Virus record (IMG/VR): IMGVR_UViG_2693429677_000001
Strand: one strand, 5' to 3'
Length of the DNA: 6,008 nucleotides
Source of the DNA: a virus
Lineage: Duplodnaviria; Heunggongvirae; Uroviricota; Caudoviricetes
This document shows, in pieces, positions 1 to 6,008 of this stretch. Below the pieces are notes generated by a model. That model made no database searches and was not told the origin of the DNA. It was given only the letters and a program-made list of their open reading frames with translations. Made by a program: the position numbers and the translations under genes. How positions within the stretch are numbered: the stretch's first letter is position 1; each line of letters begins with the position of its first letter.

Positions 1-1044
1 GAAACGTACAAACCGCAGTTACAGGAAGGCAGTGGTCGTACCCAGACTATCCGCATGATTCTGGTTGTCACGAATACCGAAGCCATCACGCTGAAAATCG
101 ACCCGTCGGTGGTACTGGCGACCCGTAAATACGTGGATGATGAAGTCCTGGAATTAAGGCTGTATGTGGATGACCAGATGAGAAACCACATTGCCGCACA
201 GGATCCTCATACCCAGTATGCACAGAAACATAATCCGACATTTACCGGAGAACCAAAAGCGCCGACGCCTGATGCAGGAAATAACACCACGCGGATTGCG
301 ACCACTGCGTTTGTACAGGCTGCTATTACCGCTCTGATTAACGGCGCGCCAGCCACGCTGGACACACTGAAAGAAATTGCCGCGGCCATTAACAATGATC
401 CGAAATTCAGCACCACCATTAACAATGCGCTGTCAGGTAAGCAGCCACTGGATGAGACGCTGACTCATTTGAGTGGAAAGGATGTTGCCGGTCTTCTCGC
501 ATACCTTGGTTTGGGAGAAGGCTCTGCATTACCGGTTGGGGTGCCTGTTCCGTGGCCTTCAGCCACTCCGCCAACAGGCTGGCTGAAATGCAACGGTGCC
601 GCTTTTTCTGCTGAAGAATACCCGGAACTGGCAAAGGCTTACCCGACCAATAAATTGCCTGATTTACGCGGTGAATTTATTCGTGGCTGGGATGATGGAC
701 GTGGAGTGGATGCGGGACGTGCCTTGCTAAGTCTTCAGGATGACTCTTTTGAAGCGCACAGGCATGAGTCCTTTTTTTACGCGGGTATTTATCGCAATGA
801 AACACCATTAAAAAATCTTCCAAGTTCAGACGAGATGCTGACTTTAAGTTCCACAACTAATGCCTTGTCCCCGGACAGTATTGATGCCACTAATTCGTTA
901 ATTGGTAATGATGATTACAACTGTCTGATTGAAGGAAATAAAAATAACAAACGAACGGCGACGGGGTTGAGTACCAGTATTGTCGGTGCAGCAGAGACAC
1001 GCCCACGTAATATTTCATTTAATTACATTGTGAGGGCTGCATGA
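1..1044 (+). CDS. Phage tail fiber protein, 5'-partial (gene starts upstream of window); copy 1 of the variable C-terminal region
   Basis: Frame is open from base 1 (ETYKPQLQEGSGRTQTIRMILVV...) to TGA at 1042-1044. C-terminus ...ETRPRNISFNYIVRAA resembles the conserved C-terminal motif of Mu S / P1 S / lambdoid Stf-type fibers. 4-bp ATGA overlap with the downstream tfa suggests translational coupling. The ORF track's ATG at 55 is an internal Met. Confidence 0.85.
   Translation, partial: ETYKPQLQEGSGRTQTIRMILVVTNTEAITLKIDPSVVLATRKYVDDEVLELRLYVDDQMRNHIAAQDPHTQYAQKHNPTFTGEPKAPTPDAGNNTTRIATTAFVQAAITALINGAPATLDTLKEIAAAINNDPKFSTTINNALSGKQPLDETLTHLSGKDVAGLLAYLGLGEGSALPVGVPVPWPSATPPTGWLKCNGAAFSAEEYPELAKAYPTNKLPDLRGEFIRGWDDGRGVDAGRALLSLQDDSFEAHRHESFFYAGIYRNETPLKNLPSSDEMLTLSSTTNALSPDSIDATNSLIGNDDYNCLIEGNKNNKRTATGLSTSIVGAAETRPRNISFNYIVRAA
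494..519. other. Putative 26-bp invertase crossover site (gix/pix/hix-like), copy inside repeat A
   Basis: TTCTCGCATACC-TT-GGTTTGGGAGAA: two 12-bp half-sites around a 2-bp core. The right half-site matches the TTnTCnnAAACC-type half-site of Gin/Hin systems (compare gix TTCCTGTAAACCGAGGTTTTGGATAA). Lies at the constant/variable boundary of the fiber gene (LGLGE). Confidence 0.5.
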
Positions 1045-1511
1045 TGTATAACGCCATCTTAAATAGTAAATTTATTGCCACAAAGGCAGGAGAGATTACC
1101 GTTTATAACTATGACAGTGAGACACGGGAGTATATTTCTGCATCAACTGAATATCTTGCTGTGGGTGTCGGTATCCCTGCATATTCCTGTTTAGATGCTC
1201 CTGGCACACATAAGGCTGGTTATGCAATCTGCCGTTCGGCAGATTTAAACTCATGGGAATATGTGCCAGACCATCGCGGTGAAGTTGTCTATAACACCGA
1301 AACGGGAGAATCAAAAGAAATCACAGCTCCGGGTGATTACCCTGAAAATACAACCACTACCGTCCCGTTAACGCCATACGATAAATGGGATGGTGAGAAA
1401 TGGGTGACGGATACCGAGGCACAGCATAGCGCCGCAGTAGAAGCGGCAGAAAGGCCGTTGGTGATGCGAATGGTGTCTTGCCGACACCAGACCCGGCACA
1501 GACAAAACTGA
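1041..1511 (+). CDS. tfa: Tail fiber assembly protein (Tfa / P2 gpG / Mu U-like), copy 1, 3'-disrupted: conserved C-terminal domain replaced by 19 out-of-frame residues at the duplication junction (likely pseudogene)
   Basis: Residues 1-137 (MMYNAILNSKF...AAVEAAE) are identical to the intact copy at 2719..3324. After base 1451 the frame runs into fiber-gene sequence and ends RPLVMRMVSCRHQTRHRQN*. The conserved tfa C-terminus (...LDYIDAVTATDTSTAPDVIWPELPEA) is missing. Confidence 0.6.
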   Translation: MMYNAILNSKFIATKAGEITVYNYDSETREYISASTEYLAVGVGIPAYSCLDAPGTHKAGYAICRSADLNSWEYVPDHRGEVVYNTETGESKEITAPGDYPENTTTTVPLTPYDKWDGEKWVTDTEAQHSAAVEAAERPLVMRMVSCRHQTRHRQN

Positions 1512-2722
1512 TTAACCAGAAACGCATCGCGCCGCTGAATCTTCTGAGTGTTGACCCGAACAACCAGAGCCAGATTATTGCGGAGCAAATCATCCCTGAG
1601 AACGAGGGCGGATTCTGGATCCGTGAGATTGGGCTTTATGATGATGAAGGCGTACTCATTGCGGTGGCGAACTGCCCGGAAACGTACAAACCGCAGTTAC
1701 AGGAAGGCAGTGGTCGTACCCAGACTATCCGCATGATTCTGGTTGTCACGAATACCGAAGCCATCACGCTGAAAATCGACCCGTCGGTGGTACTGGCGAC
1801 CCGTAAATACGTGGATGATGAAGTCCTGGAATTAAGGCTGTATGTGGATGACCAGATGAGAAACCACATTGCCGCACAGGATCCTCATACCCAGTATGCA
1901 CAGAAACATAATCCGACATTTACCGGAGAACCAAAAGCGCCGACGCCTGATGCAGGAAATAACACCACGCGGATTGCGACCACTGCGTTTGTACAGGCTG
2001 CTATTACCGCTCTGATTAACGGCGCGCCAGCCACGCTGGACACACTGAAAGAAATTGCCGCGGCCATTAACAATGATCCGAAATTCAGCACCACCATTAA
2101 CAATGCGCTGTCAGGTAAGCAGCCACTGGATGAGACGCTGACTCATTTGAGTGGAAAGGATGTTGCCGGTCTTCTCGCATACCTTGGTTTGGGAGAAGGC
2201 TCTGCATTACCGGTTGGGGTGCCTGTTCCGTGGCCTTCAGCCACTCCGCCAACAGGCTGGCTGAAATGCAACGGTGCCGCTTTTTCTGCTGAAGAATACC
2301 CGGAACTGGCAAAGGCTTACCCGACCAATAAATTGCCTGATTTACGCGGTGAATTTATTCGTGGCTGGGATGATGGACGTGGAGTGGATGCGGGACGTGC
2401 CTTGCTAAGTCTTCAGGATGACTCTTTTGAAGCGCACAGGCATGAGTCCTTTTTTTACGCGGGTATTTATCGCAATGAAACACCATTAAAAAATCTTCCA
2501 AGTTCAGACGAGATGCTGACTTTAAGTTCCACAACTAATGCCTTGTCCCCGGACAGTATTGATGCCACTAATTCGTTAATTGGTAATGATGATTACAACT
2601 GTCTGATTGAAGGAAATAAAAATAACAAACGAACGGCGACGGGGTTGAGTACCAGTATTGTCGGTGCAGCAGAGACACGCCCACGTAATATTTCATTTAA
2701 TTACATTGTGAGGGCTGCATGA
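1478..2722 (+). CDS. Phage tail fiber protein, second copy, 5'-truncated (constant region + variable C-terminal cassette Sv); no credible start codon
   Basis: In-frame coding from about 1452 (KAVGDANGVLPTPDPAQTKL...GGFWIREIGLYDDEGVLIAVAN...), which resembles the N-proximal region of P2 gpH-type fibers. The last 329 aa are identical to 55..1044. The 'M' at 1478 is a TTG with no Shine-Dalgarno; an in-frame TAG lies at 1427-1429. Stop at 2720-2722 overlaps the tfa start (ATGA). Confidence 0.65.
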   Translation: MPTPDPAQTKLINQKRIAPLNLLSVDPNNQSQIIAEQIIPENEGGFWIREIGLYDDEGVLIAVANCPETYKPQLQEGSGRTQTIRMILVVTNTEAITLKIDPSVVLATRKYVDDEVLELRLYVDDQMRNHIAAQDPHTQYAQKHNPTFTGEPKAPTPDAGNNTTRIATTAFVQAAITALINGAPATLDTLKEIAAAINNDPKFSTTINNALSGKQPLDETLTHLSGKDVAGLLAYLGLGEGSALPVGVPVPWPSATPPTGWLKCNGAAFSAEEYPELAKAYPTNKLPDLRGEFIRGWDDGRGVDAGRALLSLQDDSFEAHRHESFFYAGIYRNETPLKNLPSSDEMLTLSSTTNALSPDSIDATNSLIGNDDYNCLIEGNKNNKRTATGLSTSIVGAAETRPRNISFNYIVRAA

Positions 2723-3129
2723 TGTATAACGCCATCTTAAATAGTAAATTTATTGCCACAAAGGCAGGAGAGATTACCGTTTATAACTATGACAGTGAGA
2801 CACGGGAGTATATTTCTGCATCAACTGAATATCTTGCTGTGGGTGTCGGTATCCCTGCATATTCCTGTTTAGATGCTCCTGGCACACATAAGGCTGGTTA
2901 TGCAATCTGCCGTTCGGCAGATTTAAACTCATGGGAATATGTGCCAGACCATCGCGGTGAAGTTGTCTATAACACCGAAACGGGAGAATCAAAAGAAATC
3001 ACAGCTCCGGGTGATTACCCTGAAAATACAACCACTACCGTCCCGTTAACGCCATACGATAAATGGGATGGTGAGAAATGGGTGACGGATACCGAGGCAC
3101 AGCATAGCGCCGCAGTAGAAGCGGCAGAA
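1679..3129. repeat. Direct repeat copy B (perfect 1451 bp)
   Basis: Same as copy A, shifted by 1678 bp. The 227 bp between the copies (1452..1678) encodes fiber constant-region sequence. Confidence 0.9.
2172..2197. other. Putative left crossover site of the invertible segment (pixL-like)
   Basis: Identical to 494..519. Bases 2184..2198 (TTGGTTTGGGAGAAG) are a perfect 15-bp inverted repeat with 4066..4080. Confidence 0.6.
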
Positions 3130-3324
3130 GCACAGCGCCAGTCGCTGATTGATGCTGCAATGGCTTCCATCAGTCTGATTCAACTGAAATTACAGGCCGG
3201 GCGGAAGCTGACGCAGGCAGAAACCACCCGACTTAACGCTGTGCTGGATTACATTGACGCAGTGACGGCAACAGATACCAGCACTGCGCCGGATGTCATC
3301 TGGCCTGAACTGCCGGAGGCGTAG
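2719..3324 (+). CDS. tfa: Tail fiber assembly protein (Tfa / gpG / U-like), intact copy
   Basis: 201-aa ORF, translationally coupled to the upstream fiber gene. C-terminal ...LNAVLDYIDAVTATDTSTAPDVIWPELPEA parallels the C-terminus of the minus-strand tfa' (...LWLDYLDALELIDTSSAPDIEWPTPP), as expected for the two chaperones of an invertible fiber segment. Confidence 0.85.
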   Translation: MMYNAILNSKFIATKAGEITVYNYDSETREYISASTEYLAVGVGIPAYSCLDAPGTHKAGYAICRSADLNSWEYVPDHRGEVVYNTETGESKEITAPGDYPENTTTTVPLTPYDKWDGEKWVTDTEAQHSAAVEAAEAQRQSLIDAAMASISLIQLKLQAGRKLTQAETTRLNAVLDYIDAVTATDTSTAPDVIWPELPEA

Positions 3325-3715
3325 GCCATTCAATATCTGGAGCACTGGAGGTATCAATCAGTTCCAGTGCGTCCAGATAATCCAGCCACAAATTATATTG
3401 CGCCAGTTCCTCACTTTTCAGACGACCAATAGCCGCTTTACCTGGCCATTGTCTGCTGTTCATGTGCTCGTTGGCTTCATTAATAAGTTTTCTTTTTTTC
3501 AAATCCGCCAATGCAATAAGGTTTTCTTTTGATAAAGGTGGTTGCTCTGTCAAAACCGGATATCCCTCCTGATTGCTGACTATTTTCATGCCATTATCCT
3601 GACCATCCAGTAGTAACAGCCATTCATCCGTGGTTATCTCAACAGCATCTGAAGGTGCTTTATTTAAATCGGTAAAAAAACCATTTTCTTTTTGTGAATA
3701 GAAGTATCTGTCCAT
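3296..3715 (-). CDS. tfa: Alternative tail fiber assembly protein (tfa' / U'-like) for the inverted orientation
   Basis: 139-aa minus-strand ORF immediately downstream (on minus) of the alternative fiber cassette: TAA TAA ATG junction at 3713-3721. Conserved tfa C-terminal motif DYLDALELIDTSSAPDIEWP. Its 3' end overlaps the + strand tfa 3' end by about 29 bp. Confidence 0.8.
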   Translation of the reverse strand: MDRYFYSQKENGFFTDLNKAPSDAVEITTDEWLLLLDGQDNGMKIVSNQEGYPVLTEQPPLSKENLIALADLKKRKLINEANEHMNSRQWPGKAAIGRLKSEELAQYNLWLDYLDALELIDTSSAPDIEWPTPPAVQAR

Positions 3716-3718
3716 TTA

Positions 3719-4120
3719 TTAATCTCCAAAAGCAATCCAGTAAGCAAAAGGATTTACTCCTTGCTCAGTCACAGATGACATCAGGGAAAATTGCGATGGT
3801 GAAACAGGTAACGCTGCAAAACTAACCATTGTTGACACACCTGACCGTGCATTATCGTACGATGCAACAACACAATAATTGGTATTGCTGAAAGATATCG
3901 GCAGGGTGATATTTACAGGTGAGCCTAATGGCCCTGATGCTGATATTCCCATTTGAATGATGGTTCCATCAGGCAATTTTCTCCAGCGATTAGAACTCGG
4001 ATTTCTTTTCCAGGCTGACATATCCGGTATCTGATTTTCTCCTGTGCCCACATCCCTTTTCGCCGCTTCTCCCAAACCAACGTTTATGAAAATGCAGAGA
4101 TAACGGCTAACTGGCATCAT
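3719..4120 (-). CDS. Alternative tail fiber C-terminal cassette (Sv'-like); promoterless, expected to fuse in-frame to the constant fiber region after inversion
   Basis: Minus-strand ORF beginning inside the segment next to the right crossover site. Reading from the site gives ...NVGLGEAAKRDVGTGENQ..., sharing the GLGE junction with the + strand fiber (...AYLGLGEGSALPV...) exactly at the 15-bp inverted repeat. The true coding start after inversion would be the crossover point (about 4066), not the ATG at 4120. Confidence 0.7.
   Translation of the reverse strand: MMPVSRYLCIFINVGLGEAAKRDVGTGENQIPDMSAWKRNPSSNRWRKLPDGTIIQMGISASGPLGSPVNITLPISFSNTNYCVVASYDNARSGVSTMVSFAALPVSPSQFSLMSSVTEQGVNPFAYWIAFGD
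4067..4092. other. Putative right crossover site (pixR-like), inverted relative to 2172..2197
   Basis: TTCTCCCAAACC-AA-CGTTTATGAAAA; its reverse complement TTTTCATAAACG-TT-GGTTTGGGAGAA shares the core and right half-site with the left site. Located 55 bp upstream of the invertase start, at the 5' end of the minus-strand fiber cassette. Confidence 0.6.
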
Positions 4121-4147
4121 CTCCGGTTTTTATTCAGGGGGATGATC

Positions 4148-4741
4148 ATGCTTATTGGCTATGTACGCGTGTCAACAAATGACCAGAACACGGAATTGCA
4201 GAGTAATGCGCTGGAGTGTGCAGGATGTGAGCTGATTTTTGAGGATAAAATCAGCGGCTCGAAGTCCGACAGGCCGGGGCTGAAAAAACTGCTCAGGACA
4301 CTATCGGCAGGAGACACGTTGGTTGTCTGGAAGCTGGACAGACTGGGGCGCAGTATGCGGCATCTCGTTACGCTGATAGAAGAGTTGCGCCAGCGTGGTG
4401 TGAATTTCAGAAGCCTGACTGACAGTATTGATACCAGTACCCCAATGGGCCGTTTCTTTTTTCATGTCATGGGTGCCCTGGCTGAAATGGAGCGAGAACT
4501 CATTGTCGAGCGGACACGCGCAGGACTGGAAGCGGCCAGAGCCAAAGGTCGTATTGGTGGCAGACGACCGAAACTCACCGCGAGTGAGTGGGAGCAGGTC
4601 GGACGGTTGCTGGCTGCGGGGGAATCTCGTCAACGTGTGGCGCTGATTTTTGATATTGGCCTGTCCACGCTCTATAAAAAATTCCCCTCATCAGCGACAA
4701 AGAATAAATTGTGTCATCCCTTAGCCAACCGGGACAAATAG
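4148..4741 (+). CDS. pin: Serine DNA invertase of the Gin/Pin/Hin/Cin family
   Basis: MLIGYVRVSTNDQNT...DTLVVWKLDRLGRSMRHL...RSLTDSIDTSTPMGRFFFHVMGALAEMERELIVERT...GRIGGRRPKL...STLYKKF is near-identical in motif content to Gin (Mu) and Pin (e14), with the catalytic Ser in YVRVSTNDQ and a C-terminal HTH. ATG at 4148 has a GGGGG Shine-Dalgarno 6 nt upstream; the ORF track's ATG at 4142 abuts the SD and is unlikely. The symbol is a family-level guess; the exact orthologue was not determined. Confidence 0.9.
   Translation: MLIGYVRVSTNDQNTELQSNALECAGCELIFEDKISGSKSDRPGLKKLLRTLSAGDTLVVWKLDRLGRSMRHLVTLIEELRQRGVNFRSLTDSIDTSTPMGRFFFHVMGALAEMERELIVERTRAGLEAARAKGRIGGRRPKLTASEWEQVGRLLAAGESRQRVALIFDIGLSTLYKKFPSSATKNKLCHPLANRDK
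4165..4250. promoter_or_regulatory. Possible Fis-dependent recombinational enhancer (sis-like) within the 5' coding region of the invertase gene
   Basis: In Hin and Gin systems the enhancer lies in the first ~100-150 bp of the invertase coding sequence. The segment here (gtgtcaacaaatgaccagaacacggaattgcagagtaatgcgctg...) resembles the Hin enhancer region as I remember it. Individual Fis sites cannot be placed by eye. Confidence 0.3.
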
Positions 4742-4800
4742 CCTGACATCTCCGGCACAATTGAAAATACCACTCACCCATTAACCACGGAGTTAAACGG
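4742..4800 (+). promoter_or_regulatory. Intergenic region expected to carry the late promoter / RBS for the FI-FII tail operon
   Basis: 59-bp gap between invertase stop and FI start with an SD near 4788-4792. In P2 the PF late promoter (Ogr-activated, TGT-N12-ACA dyad near -55) sits upstream of FI. I could not find a clean dyad here; an imperfect TGTC-N17-GACA lies at 4722-4746. Confidence 0.2.
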
Positions 4801-5991
4801 ATGAGTGACTATCATCACGGCGTGCAGGTGCTGGAGATTAACGACGGCACCCGCGTCATTTCCACCGTATCCACTGCCATTGTCGGCATGGTCTGCACGG
4901 CCAGCGATGCGGATGCGGAAATCTTCCCCCTCAATAAACCGGTGCTGATCACCAATGTGCAGAGCGCGATTGCAAAGGCCGGTAAAAAAGGCACGCTGGC
5001 GGCATCGTTGCAGGCCATCGCTGACCAGTCAAAACCGGTCACCGTTGTCGTGCGCGTGGAAGACGGCACCGGCGACGACGAAGAAACGAAACTCGCGCAG
5101 ACCGTTTCCAATATCATCGGCACCACTGACGAAAACGGTCAGTACACCGGACTGAAAGCCCTGCTGGCGGCGGAGTCGGTTACCGGTGTTAAACCGCGTA
5201 TTCTTGGTGTGCCGGGGCTGGATACCAAAGAGGTGGCTGTTGCACTGGCATCAGTCTGTCAGAAGCTGCGCGCTTTCGGATATATCAGCGCATGGGGCTG
5301 TAAAACCATTTCCGAGGTGAAAGCTTACCGCCAGAATTTCAGCCAGCGTGAGCTGATGGTCATCTGGCCGGATTTCCTCGCATGGGATACGGTCACCAGT
5401 ACCACCGCCACCGCGTATGCCACCGCCCGTGCGCTGGGTCTGCGTGCCAAAATCGACCAGGAGCAGGGCTGGCATAAAACGCTGTCCAACGTCGGGGTGA
5501 ACGGTGTTACCGGCATCAGCGCCTCTGTATTCTGGGATTTGCAGGAGTCCGGCACCGATGCTGACCTGCTTAACGAGTCAGGCGTCACAACACTGATTCG
5601 CCGTGACGGTTTCCGCTTCTGGGGTAACCGTACCTGCTCTGATGACCCGCTGTTCCTCTTTGAAAACTACACCCGCACCGCGCAGGTGCTGGCCGACACG
5701 ATGGCTGAGGCGCACATGTGGGCGGTGGACAAGCCCATCACCGCAACGCTGATTCGCGACATCGTTGACGGTATCAATGCCAAATTCCGTGAGCTGAAAA
5801 CAAACGGCTATATCGTGGATGCGACCTGCTGGTTCAGCGAAGAATCCAACGATGCGGAAACCCTCAAGGCCGGAAAACTGTATATCGACTACGACTATAC
5901 ACCGGTGCCTCCTCTCGAAAACCTGACCCTGCGCCAGCGTATTACCGATAAATACCTGGCAAATCTGGTCACCTCGGTTAACAGCAATTAA
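4801..5991 (+). CDS. FI: Phage contractile tail sheath protein (P2 gpFI family)
   Basis: 396-aa ORF starting MSDYHHGVQVLEINDGTRVISTVSTAIVGMVCTASDADAE..., which I recognise as the N-terminus and length of P2 FI-type sheath proteins. GGAG-type SD about 8 nt upstream. GC-rich codon usage, distinct from the fiber cassettes. Confidence 0.92.
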   Translation: MSDYHHGVQVLEINDGTRVISTVSTAIVGMVCTASDADAEIFPLNKPVLITNVQSAIAKAGKKGTLAASLQAIADQSKPVTVVVRVEDGTGDDEETKLAQTVSNIIGTTDENGQYTGLKALLAAESVTGVKPRILGVPGLDTKEVAVALASVCQKLRAFGYISAWGCKTISEVKAYRQNFSQRELMVIWPDFLAWDTVTSTTATAYATARALGLRAKIDQEQGWHKTLSNVGVNGVTGISASVFWDLQESGTDADLLNESGVTTLIRRDGFRFWGNRTCSDDPLFLFENYTRTAQVLADTMAEAHMWAVDKPITATLIRDIVDGINAKFRELKTNGYIVDATCWFSEESNDAETLKAGKLYIDYDYTPVPPLENLTLRQRITDKYLANLVTSVNSN

Positions 5992-6003
5992 GGAGCCTGA
6001 CCG

Positions 6004-6008
6004 ATGGC
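6004..6008 (+). CDS. FII: Start of next late gene, probably tail tube protein (P2 gpFII-like); 3'-partial, only ATG GC in window
   Basis: AAGGAG Shine-Dalgarno at 5990-5995 followed by ATG at 6004 (M-A...), in the position FII occupies after FI in P2-like phages. Confidence 0.4.

Follow-up and report, generated by a model that had tools for sequence, protein, structure and literature searches.

The tail-fibre switches of phages Mu and P1 are each built from a serine invertase (Gin and Cin respectively), 26-bp crossover sites composed of two 12-bp half-sites about a 2-bp core, one site lying in the fibre gene at the boundary between its constant and variable parts and the other beside the invertase gene, and alternative tip and chaperone genes arranged in mirror image (Sv-U and U'-Sv'). 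For wild-type Hin, of the same family, recombination is limited to inversion between sites of a single molecule (PMC3798978). Invertible tail-fibre segments are also carried by prophages Phi1, Phi2 and Phi4 of E. coli EC958, where about 50% were flipped in culture (PMC4134206), and the Min system of p15B is described as having six crossover sites in a review (Sandmeier, 1994) cited in the same paper. Here we analyse a locus of this kind in a 6,008-bp window, which is the complete draft E. coli contig CYBT01000060.1 (assembly GCA_001277775.1) and in which a serine invertase gene is accompanied by three candidate crossover sites: two on the left in direct orientation (L1 and L2) and one on the right in inverted orientation (R). 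We consider it very probable that this is an ordinary two-site tail-fibre switch of a P2-like (Peduovirus) E. coli prophage, and that the third site is the passenger of a one-off repeat.

Judged by its sequence, the switch has those defining features of the Gin/Cin/Pin/Hin systems that sequence can test. Its invertase is related to both Cin and Gin; its sites have the same 26-bp format, with two imperfectly symmetric 12-bp half-sites and a 2-bp core that, as TT, is also the core of cix; one site lies beside the invertase gene and the other within the fibre gene, where its constant and variable parts meet; and Sv-U and U'-Sv' are in mirror image. A putative counterpart of the P1 enhancer lies at the 5' end of the invertase gene. 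It differs from P1 and Mu in residing in a P2-like prophage, with the cassette placed between H/G and FI, in its shorter invertible segment (1.9 kb) and in its fibre tips, which have Collar and gp53-like domains instead of being the S tips of Mu and P1. Further, the Mu sites are identical over 26 bp, whereas the two partner sites of the window share only the inner half-site and core (15 bp). The EC958 prophages resemble the window in having a prophage-borne switch of 2–3 kb with 26-bp sites of the same consensus (PMC4134206), but neither they nor the P2-like, invertase-carrying phages pro483 and KC618326 have the 1,678-bp direct repeat or the third site. The gene order of the window is that of a tail-collar fibre gene H with a 3' Collar domain, a chaperone gene, a second chaperone gene and a gp53-like tip on the opposite strand, the serine recombinase and a tail sheath gene.

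The invertase and its crossover sites

The invertase is encoded at 4148–4741 (plus strand) and belongs to the Gin/Cin/Pin/Hin family of serine DNA invertases, combining a catalytic domain at the N-terminus (Pfam Resolvase, E = 2.1e-52) with a helix-turn-helix at the C-terminus (HTH_7, E = 5.2e-13). It matches the Mu Gin structure 3uj3 with E = 1.6e-92, compared with 6.8e-34 for gamma-delta resolvase, and shares 78% identity with P1 Cin across 186 amino acids. The open reading frame (ORF) has in-frame ATG codons at 4142 and 4148, of which the latter (MLIGY...) is favoured by gene callers and by alignment with Gin and Cin; the C-terminus is about 11 residues longer than that of Cin.

The 26-mer TTCTCGCATACCTTGGTTTGGGAGAA is present as exact copies at 494–519 (L1) and 2172–2197 (L2), both on the plus strand, with zero expected by chance; L1 reads TTCTCGCATACC TT GGTTTGGGAGAA, and L2, the native left site, lies in the fibre gene at the constant/variable boundary. 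R (4067–4092, minus strand) reads TTTTCATAAACGTTGGTTTGGGAGAA in reverse complement, that is TTTTCATAAACG TT GGTTTGGGAGAA, and was missed by a search allowing three mismatches to the left 26-mer, since it is identical to the left sites at only 21 of 26 positions. A previous sequence-only reading of the window had described three copies of one 26-bp site, which is true of the identical left pair but not of R, a different 26-mer. The remainder of its description of the sites was borne out. The perfect 15-bp core-proximal inverted repeat that it reported, TTGGTTTGGGAGAAG, comprises the core dinucleotide, the inner half-site and one extra base, pairs 506–520 and 2184–2198 with 4066–4080, and ranks first among the inverted repeats of the window; by our estimate about 0.02 perfect 15-bp inverted repeats are expected by chance per 6 kb. 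The core dinucleotides (TT at 506–507, TT at 2184–2185 and AA at 4079–4080) agree with two direct left sites and one inverted right site, partner sites being inverted with matching cores as is characteristic of the invertase family. Likewise, the core-to-core distances to R, 1,895 bp from the site at 2172 and 3,573 bp from the site at 494, correspond to the proposed segments of about 1.9 and 3.6 kb, and pairing of R with either left site is formally possible, as had been suggested.

Site sequences for gix and cix were taken directly from the Mu and P1 reference records. Against the family consensus TTCTCNNAAACCNNGGTTTNNGAGAA the left sites score 19/20 and the right site 18/20, so that neither falls below Mu gix (17/20) or P1 cix (17–18/20), while the next best 26-mer in the 7 kb of parental sequence scanned scores 13/20. 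This comparison supports all three, at 494–519, 2172–2197 and 4067–4092, as genuine crossover sites of a Gin/Cin/Pin/Hin-type invertase.

A putative equivalent of the Fis-bound recombinational enhancer was found at 4166–4237 (plus strand), 86–157 bp from the core of R and within the 5' part of the invertase gene. This stretch is identical at 55 of 72 positions to the enhancer annotated in the P1 record and contains two G-N13-C motifs 49 bp apart. It may have an enhancer role and depend on Fis, although it also encodes a conserved protein segment and, because it is coding sequence, the match is suggestive only.

Natural inversion in single-copy relatives

Inversion of the segment between a left and the right site, as the sequence-only reading had proposed in principle, is seen in nature. 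Fifteen complete E. coli genomes contain the flipped fusion, in which the constant part of H is joined to the gp53-like tip, all of them with it annotated as one continuous tail-protein gene, and 320 contain the unflipped form. In one relative (L015) the alignment to the window switches strand at 2198 and 4083, a clean inversion at L2 and R, and two others (L005 and L008), which encode the same invertase protein, represent both flip states of a sister cassette set, with breakpoints at the sites. L2 has the same sequence and place in all relatives, and the site sequences of the nine closest are the same in either flip state, as expected given that the inner half-sites are identical. Ten relatives, including L001–L006, L008, L009 and L015, were scanned for both sites and each had exactly one left and one right site. 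The identical invertase protein is encoded by eight of these ten (L002–L006, L008, L009 and, as a truncated version, others).

Single-copy versions of the locus spanning at least 80% of the window were found in 159 complete E. coli genomes, and pro483 and KC618326 (a P2-like phage of O157:H43 T22) are also single copy, with 92–96% DNA identity to the window. In L002, which equals the window minus the repeat, the late genes are in the P2 order V-W-J-I-H-G ... FI-FII-E-T-U-D-ogr, the invertible cassette and invertase being placed after the fibre genes and before FI. In contigs encoding the identical invertase protein, its gene is surrounded by the complete late-gene order of P2. In the window itself the P2-type tail sheath gene FI (4801–5991, plus strand; Pfam Phage_sheath_1 and related) provides the context outside the switch.

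In the single-copy prophage, then, the invertase would recombine the site in H with the inverted site upstream of its own gene, flipping 1,895 bp and thereby fusing the constant part of H alternately to Sv, accompanied by chaperone U, or to Sv', accompanied by chaperone U'. U, the intact tail-fibre assembly chaperone cognate to Sv, is encoded at 2719–3324 (plus strand; Pfam Caudo_TAP, E = 1.6e-31) and the alternative chaperone U' in mirror orientation at 3296–3715 (minus strand; Caudo_TAP, E = 1.3e-25). The alternative tip Sv' (3719–4066, minus strand) has a gp53-like C-terminal domain (Pfam Gp53-like_C) and is without promoter or start until flipped; when the segment was flipped in silico, Sv' joined H in frame across the site (...LLAYLGLGEAAKRDVG...).

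The two chaperone genes overlap tail-to-tail by 29 nt (3296–3324), and their convergent 3' ends contain a 22-nt inverted repeat of 82% identity (3243–3264 and 3365–3386) that reflects a shared C-terminal motif (LDYIDA... and LDYLDA...) on opposite strands and constitutes a second, internal inverted homology within the invertible segment.

The relatives also differ in the cassettes that accompany the switch. L004, L005 and L008 have identical invertase and crossover sites together with fibre tips and chaperone N-termini different from those of the window (2394–3043 and 3484–4019), only the C-terminal region of the chaperones being shared (3043–3484, 94%); cassette sets are therefore exchanged between prophages that are nearly identical elsewhere. 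Two draft contigs with the same invertase, L011 (1–110) and L010 (1–156), start within about 100–150 bp of the right site (corresponding to the window from 4066 and 4019 onward respectively), a pattern typical of assemblies that break at invertible segments. From 4066 onward L011 and the window are 100% identical, but to the left L011 has an unrelated Collar-like cassette; a mosaic boundary between cassette sets therefore coincides with the inner edge of the crossover site. We considered whether L011 might be the flipped state of the window prophage, but the 96 bp preceding its site match neither of the window's cassettes and belong to a different set. In a further E. coli contig (L007; AARDQA010000001.1, GCA_011902335.1), of which 9780–10010 corresponds to the window from 4119 onward, Mu-like early genes (transposase, Gam, GemA and Mor, with an IS21-family insertion inside) precede the identical invertase and P2 tail genes, and the right crossover site and whole invertible cassette are missing. 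This arrangement was rejected as a crossover product, its breakpoint lying about 25 bp outside the right site.

A direct repeat with one untemplated base at its junction

The extra left site (L1) is accounted for by a direct repeat. Positions 1–1451 are an exact direct repeat of 1679–3129 (1,451 bp, no mismatches, period 1,678 bp), and the left sites are not independent since both sit inside it, their flanks being identical over at least 493 bp to the left and 932 bp to the right. The repeat unit of 1,678 bp extends from nucleotide 97 of H to nucleotide 408 of the chaperone gene. Its left copy (1–1451, plus strand) is cut at the contig edge, because the window is the entire contig, and comprises H from about nucleotide 322, L1, the variable tip Sv and the chaperone gene up to its nucleotide 408; the known sequence upstream of the site at 494 is thus the 493 bp up to that edge. 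The second copy (1453–3129, plus strand) is complete, and the two are separated by a single untemplated A at 1452.

The sequence on either side of this junction is identical to that of single-copy parents (L002 and L009): window 1–1451 equals L002 7532–8982, and window 1456–6008 equals L002 7309–11861, with no mismatch. At the junction, nucleotide 408 of the chaperone gene (...GCGGCAGAA) is followed by the untemplated A and then by nucleotide 96/97 of H (GGCCGTTGG...). Every simple parental join that we tried left at least one mismatch, and a patchy GCA-AA was the sole homology. Scored against the crossover-site consensus, the parental breakpoints reach 7/20 on the chaperone side and 10/20 on the H side; they are therefore unlike crossover sites and the invertase is not the maker of the junction. 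The junction would instead be an illegitimate join with one untemplated base, and the site at 494–519 a passenger in the direct repeat without an evolved role. The zero differences over 1,451 bp indicate that the repeat, if real, is a recent accident.

Two genes are altered by the join. A chimeric truncated chaperone ORF, U* (1041–1511, plus strand), consists of 137 tail-fibre assembly residues followed by 19 out-of-frame residues from H and is without about half of the Caudo_TAP domain, which occupies residues 79–200 of the intact protein. The 5'-truncated fibre gene H' (1478–2722, plus strand), fused to the tip Sv, is missing its first 32 codons and native start, and accordingly matches only positions 42–150 of the Pfam Phage_tail_fib profile in addition to the Collar domain. 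The sequence-only reading had taken the locus to be more complex than a two-site switch. This was not upheld, as the third site exists only through the repeat of one contig and all ten scanned relatives have two sites each; nor does the extra L1–L2 segment add complexity of another kind, for it brings no new coding cassette.

The junction was absent from 5,426 complete E. coli genomes; from GenBank phages, PLSDB plasmids and IMG/VR; and from GTDB representative genomes and JGI metagenomes. Nineteen short 19-mer matches to it in the GTDB and JGI collections were discounted as chance, coming from unrelated taxa with flanks of about 25% identity. Exact look-up of the junction-specific fibre protein (414 amino acids from a TTG start) returned one record only, CTU38770.1 of E. 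coli, which derives from CYBT01000060.1 itself, and the same look-up gave no match for the chimeric chaperone ORF (156 and 155 amino acids) or for a fibre protein of 329 amino acids with an internal start. The junction region (1439–1454) is complementary at 14 of 16 positions to the inner flank of R (4055–4070; AGAAGCGGCAGAAAGG against CCTTTTCGCCGCTTCT), probably by chance, several such matches being expected per 6 kb by our estimate, although the place of the match is curious.

Artefact, accident or multi-site system

Whether the repeat is present in the cell or was made by assembly or scaffolding is, on this evidence, about evenly balanced. That it is an artefact, the cell having the standard two sites, has in our view almost an even chance. 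Such an artefact could have arisen if a repeat node common to this and another P2-like prophage had been written twice and joined, or if a scaffold gap had been misclosed. The contig is only 6,008 bp long and starts within the repeat, its junction is a singleton across the collections searched and includes a base supplied by neither parent, and the median number of places matched by the window in E. coli genomes with a match is two, making the region repeat-rich for short reads. Spurious duplications in prophage tail-fibre regions are, moreover, a published hazard (PMC4134206). Against an artefact, no clear mosaic or repeat boundary that could account for a mis-join via a second prophage was seen in the relatives at the contig start, the junction or the contig end.

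Nothing that we found contradicts the two-site switch itself. Three considerations bear on how the third site is to be regarded. First, de Bruijn-graph assemblers need junction k-mers in the reads, which by our reasoning would place the junction in some molecules. Second, in the known type of artefact an alternative-orientation contig is integrated, giving inverted copies joined at a crossover site, whereas here the copies are direct and joined elsewhere; this rules out an inversion-heterogeneity artefact of the type seen in EC958. Third, if the duplication is real, the three-site reading would hold physically, though still by accident.

The alternative, that the sequenced isolate or a large part of its population does contain the tandem duplication and that all three sites are used to give four interconvertible isomers, falls somewhat short of an even chance in our estimation. 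All three sites are of full strength (19/20, 19/20 and 18/20), segments of 1.9 and 3.6 kb are within the natural range (about 3 kb for the Mu G segment and 4.2 kb for the P1 C segment), and the putative enhancer adjoins R, which is common to both pairings. To describe the consequences, we simulated all arrangements reachable by inversion between opposite sites, assuming that the sequence upstream of the left copy is that of L002. This gave four isomers encoding only two fibre tips, and hence no new specificity; in three of them fibre and chaperone were matched. The isomer as assembled has a full-length H-Sv fibre (454 amino acids) followed by the truncated U*, with intact U further downstream. 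The 1.9-kb flip (L2 with R) leaves Sv on the full-length fibre with only the truncated U* as cognate chaperone, and fuses Sv' to the start-less, N-terminally truncated H', which is probably a mismatched and non-functional state. The 3.6-kb flip (L1 with R) yields a complete H-Sv' fibre (395 amino acids) with U' directly after it and would be the functional alternative state. A final flip, between L1 and the now-inverted L2, restores the canonical H-Sv-U with the duplicate parked inversely. The sequence-only reading had named the 1.9-kb inversion as canonical; within the window as assembled these labels are functionally reversed, since it is the 3.6-kb flip that in silico gives the complete alternative fibre and chaperone.

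The third site would behave in this way, and the duplication would be short-lived, if both were present in the cell. The family being restricted to inversion, and L1 and L2 being direct, deletion of the duplicate by the enzyme is not expected. Perfect tandem repeats of 1.7 kb are, however, unstable in recA+ cells, where loss by RecA-dependent homologous recombination is expected. The lack of any divergence between the copies makes the duplication very recent at best, its junction is without independent observation, and selection would not be expected to maintain an arrangement that offers no new specificity and includes one mismatched state.

Two further explanations are very improbable. The first is that the locus evolved as a multiple-inversion system like p15B Min, its additional sites serving to shuffle several fibre cassettes. 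The window resembles Min in that a Gin-family invertase is faced with more than two sites in one fibre locus, giving several isomers (here four). The Min sites separate different coding cassettes, and their arrangement is a stable feature of the element. The window, by contrast, has the three or more sites of that class (three) but no distinct extra cassettes, its L1–L2 segment being an exact copy of Sv together with truncated pieces of the chaperone gene and H, found once; no scanned relative has more than two sites, and the arrangement is conserved in none of the independent genomes searched. The locus is not a member of the Min class. The second, that the invertase itself made the duplication by unequal intermolecular recombination between quasi-sites in H and the chaperone gene, could draw on the reported use of quasi-sites by Cin (Iida and Hiestand-Nauer, 1987, as cited in PMC4134206) and on the H-side breakpoint, whose 10/20 is roughly in the top 1% of background, but the 7/20 of the chaperone side is plain background, the join has no shared core dinucleotide and includes an untemplated base, neither of which conservative site-specific exchange would give, and wild-type enzymes are restricted to intramolecular inversion (PMC3798978).

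The switch underlying this locus is an already known and widespread prophage host-range switch: hundreds of E. coli genomes have Gin-family tail-fibre switches in P2-like prophages, and such switches belong to textbook biology. The lesson of the window is that complex site arrangements in short draft contigs should first be checked against the contig edges and against single-copy relatives. That the duplication is real and its three sites active, a two-site switch having newly turned into a four-isomer nested inversion system, we regard as rather unlikely. If true, it would provide a snapshot of how multi-site systems like p15B Min may originate, a site-bearing segment being duplicated and the copies then diverging; it would include a transient 'dead' state, with fibre tip and chaperone mismatched, and would offer a small natural experiment on which site the invertase chooses (1.9 versus 3.6 kb), the putative enhancer adjoining the site common to both. 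Confirmation of the duplication would thus bear on the possible origin of multi-site inversion systems.

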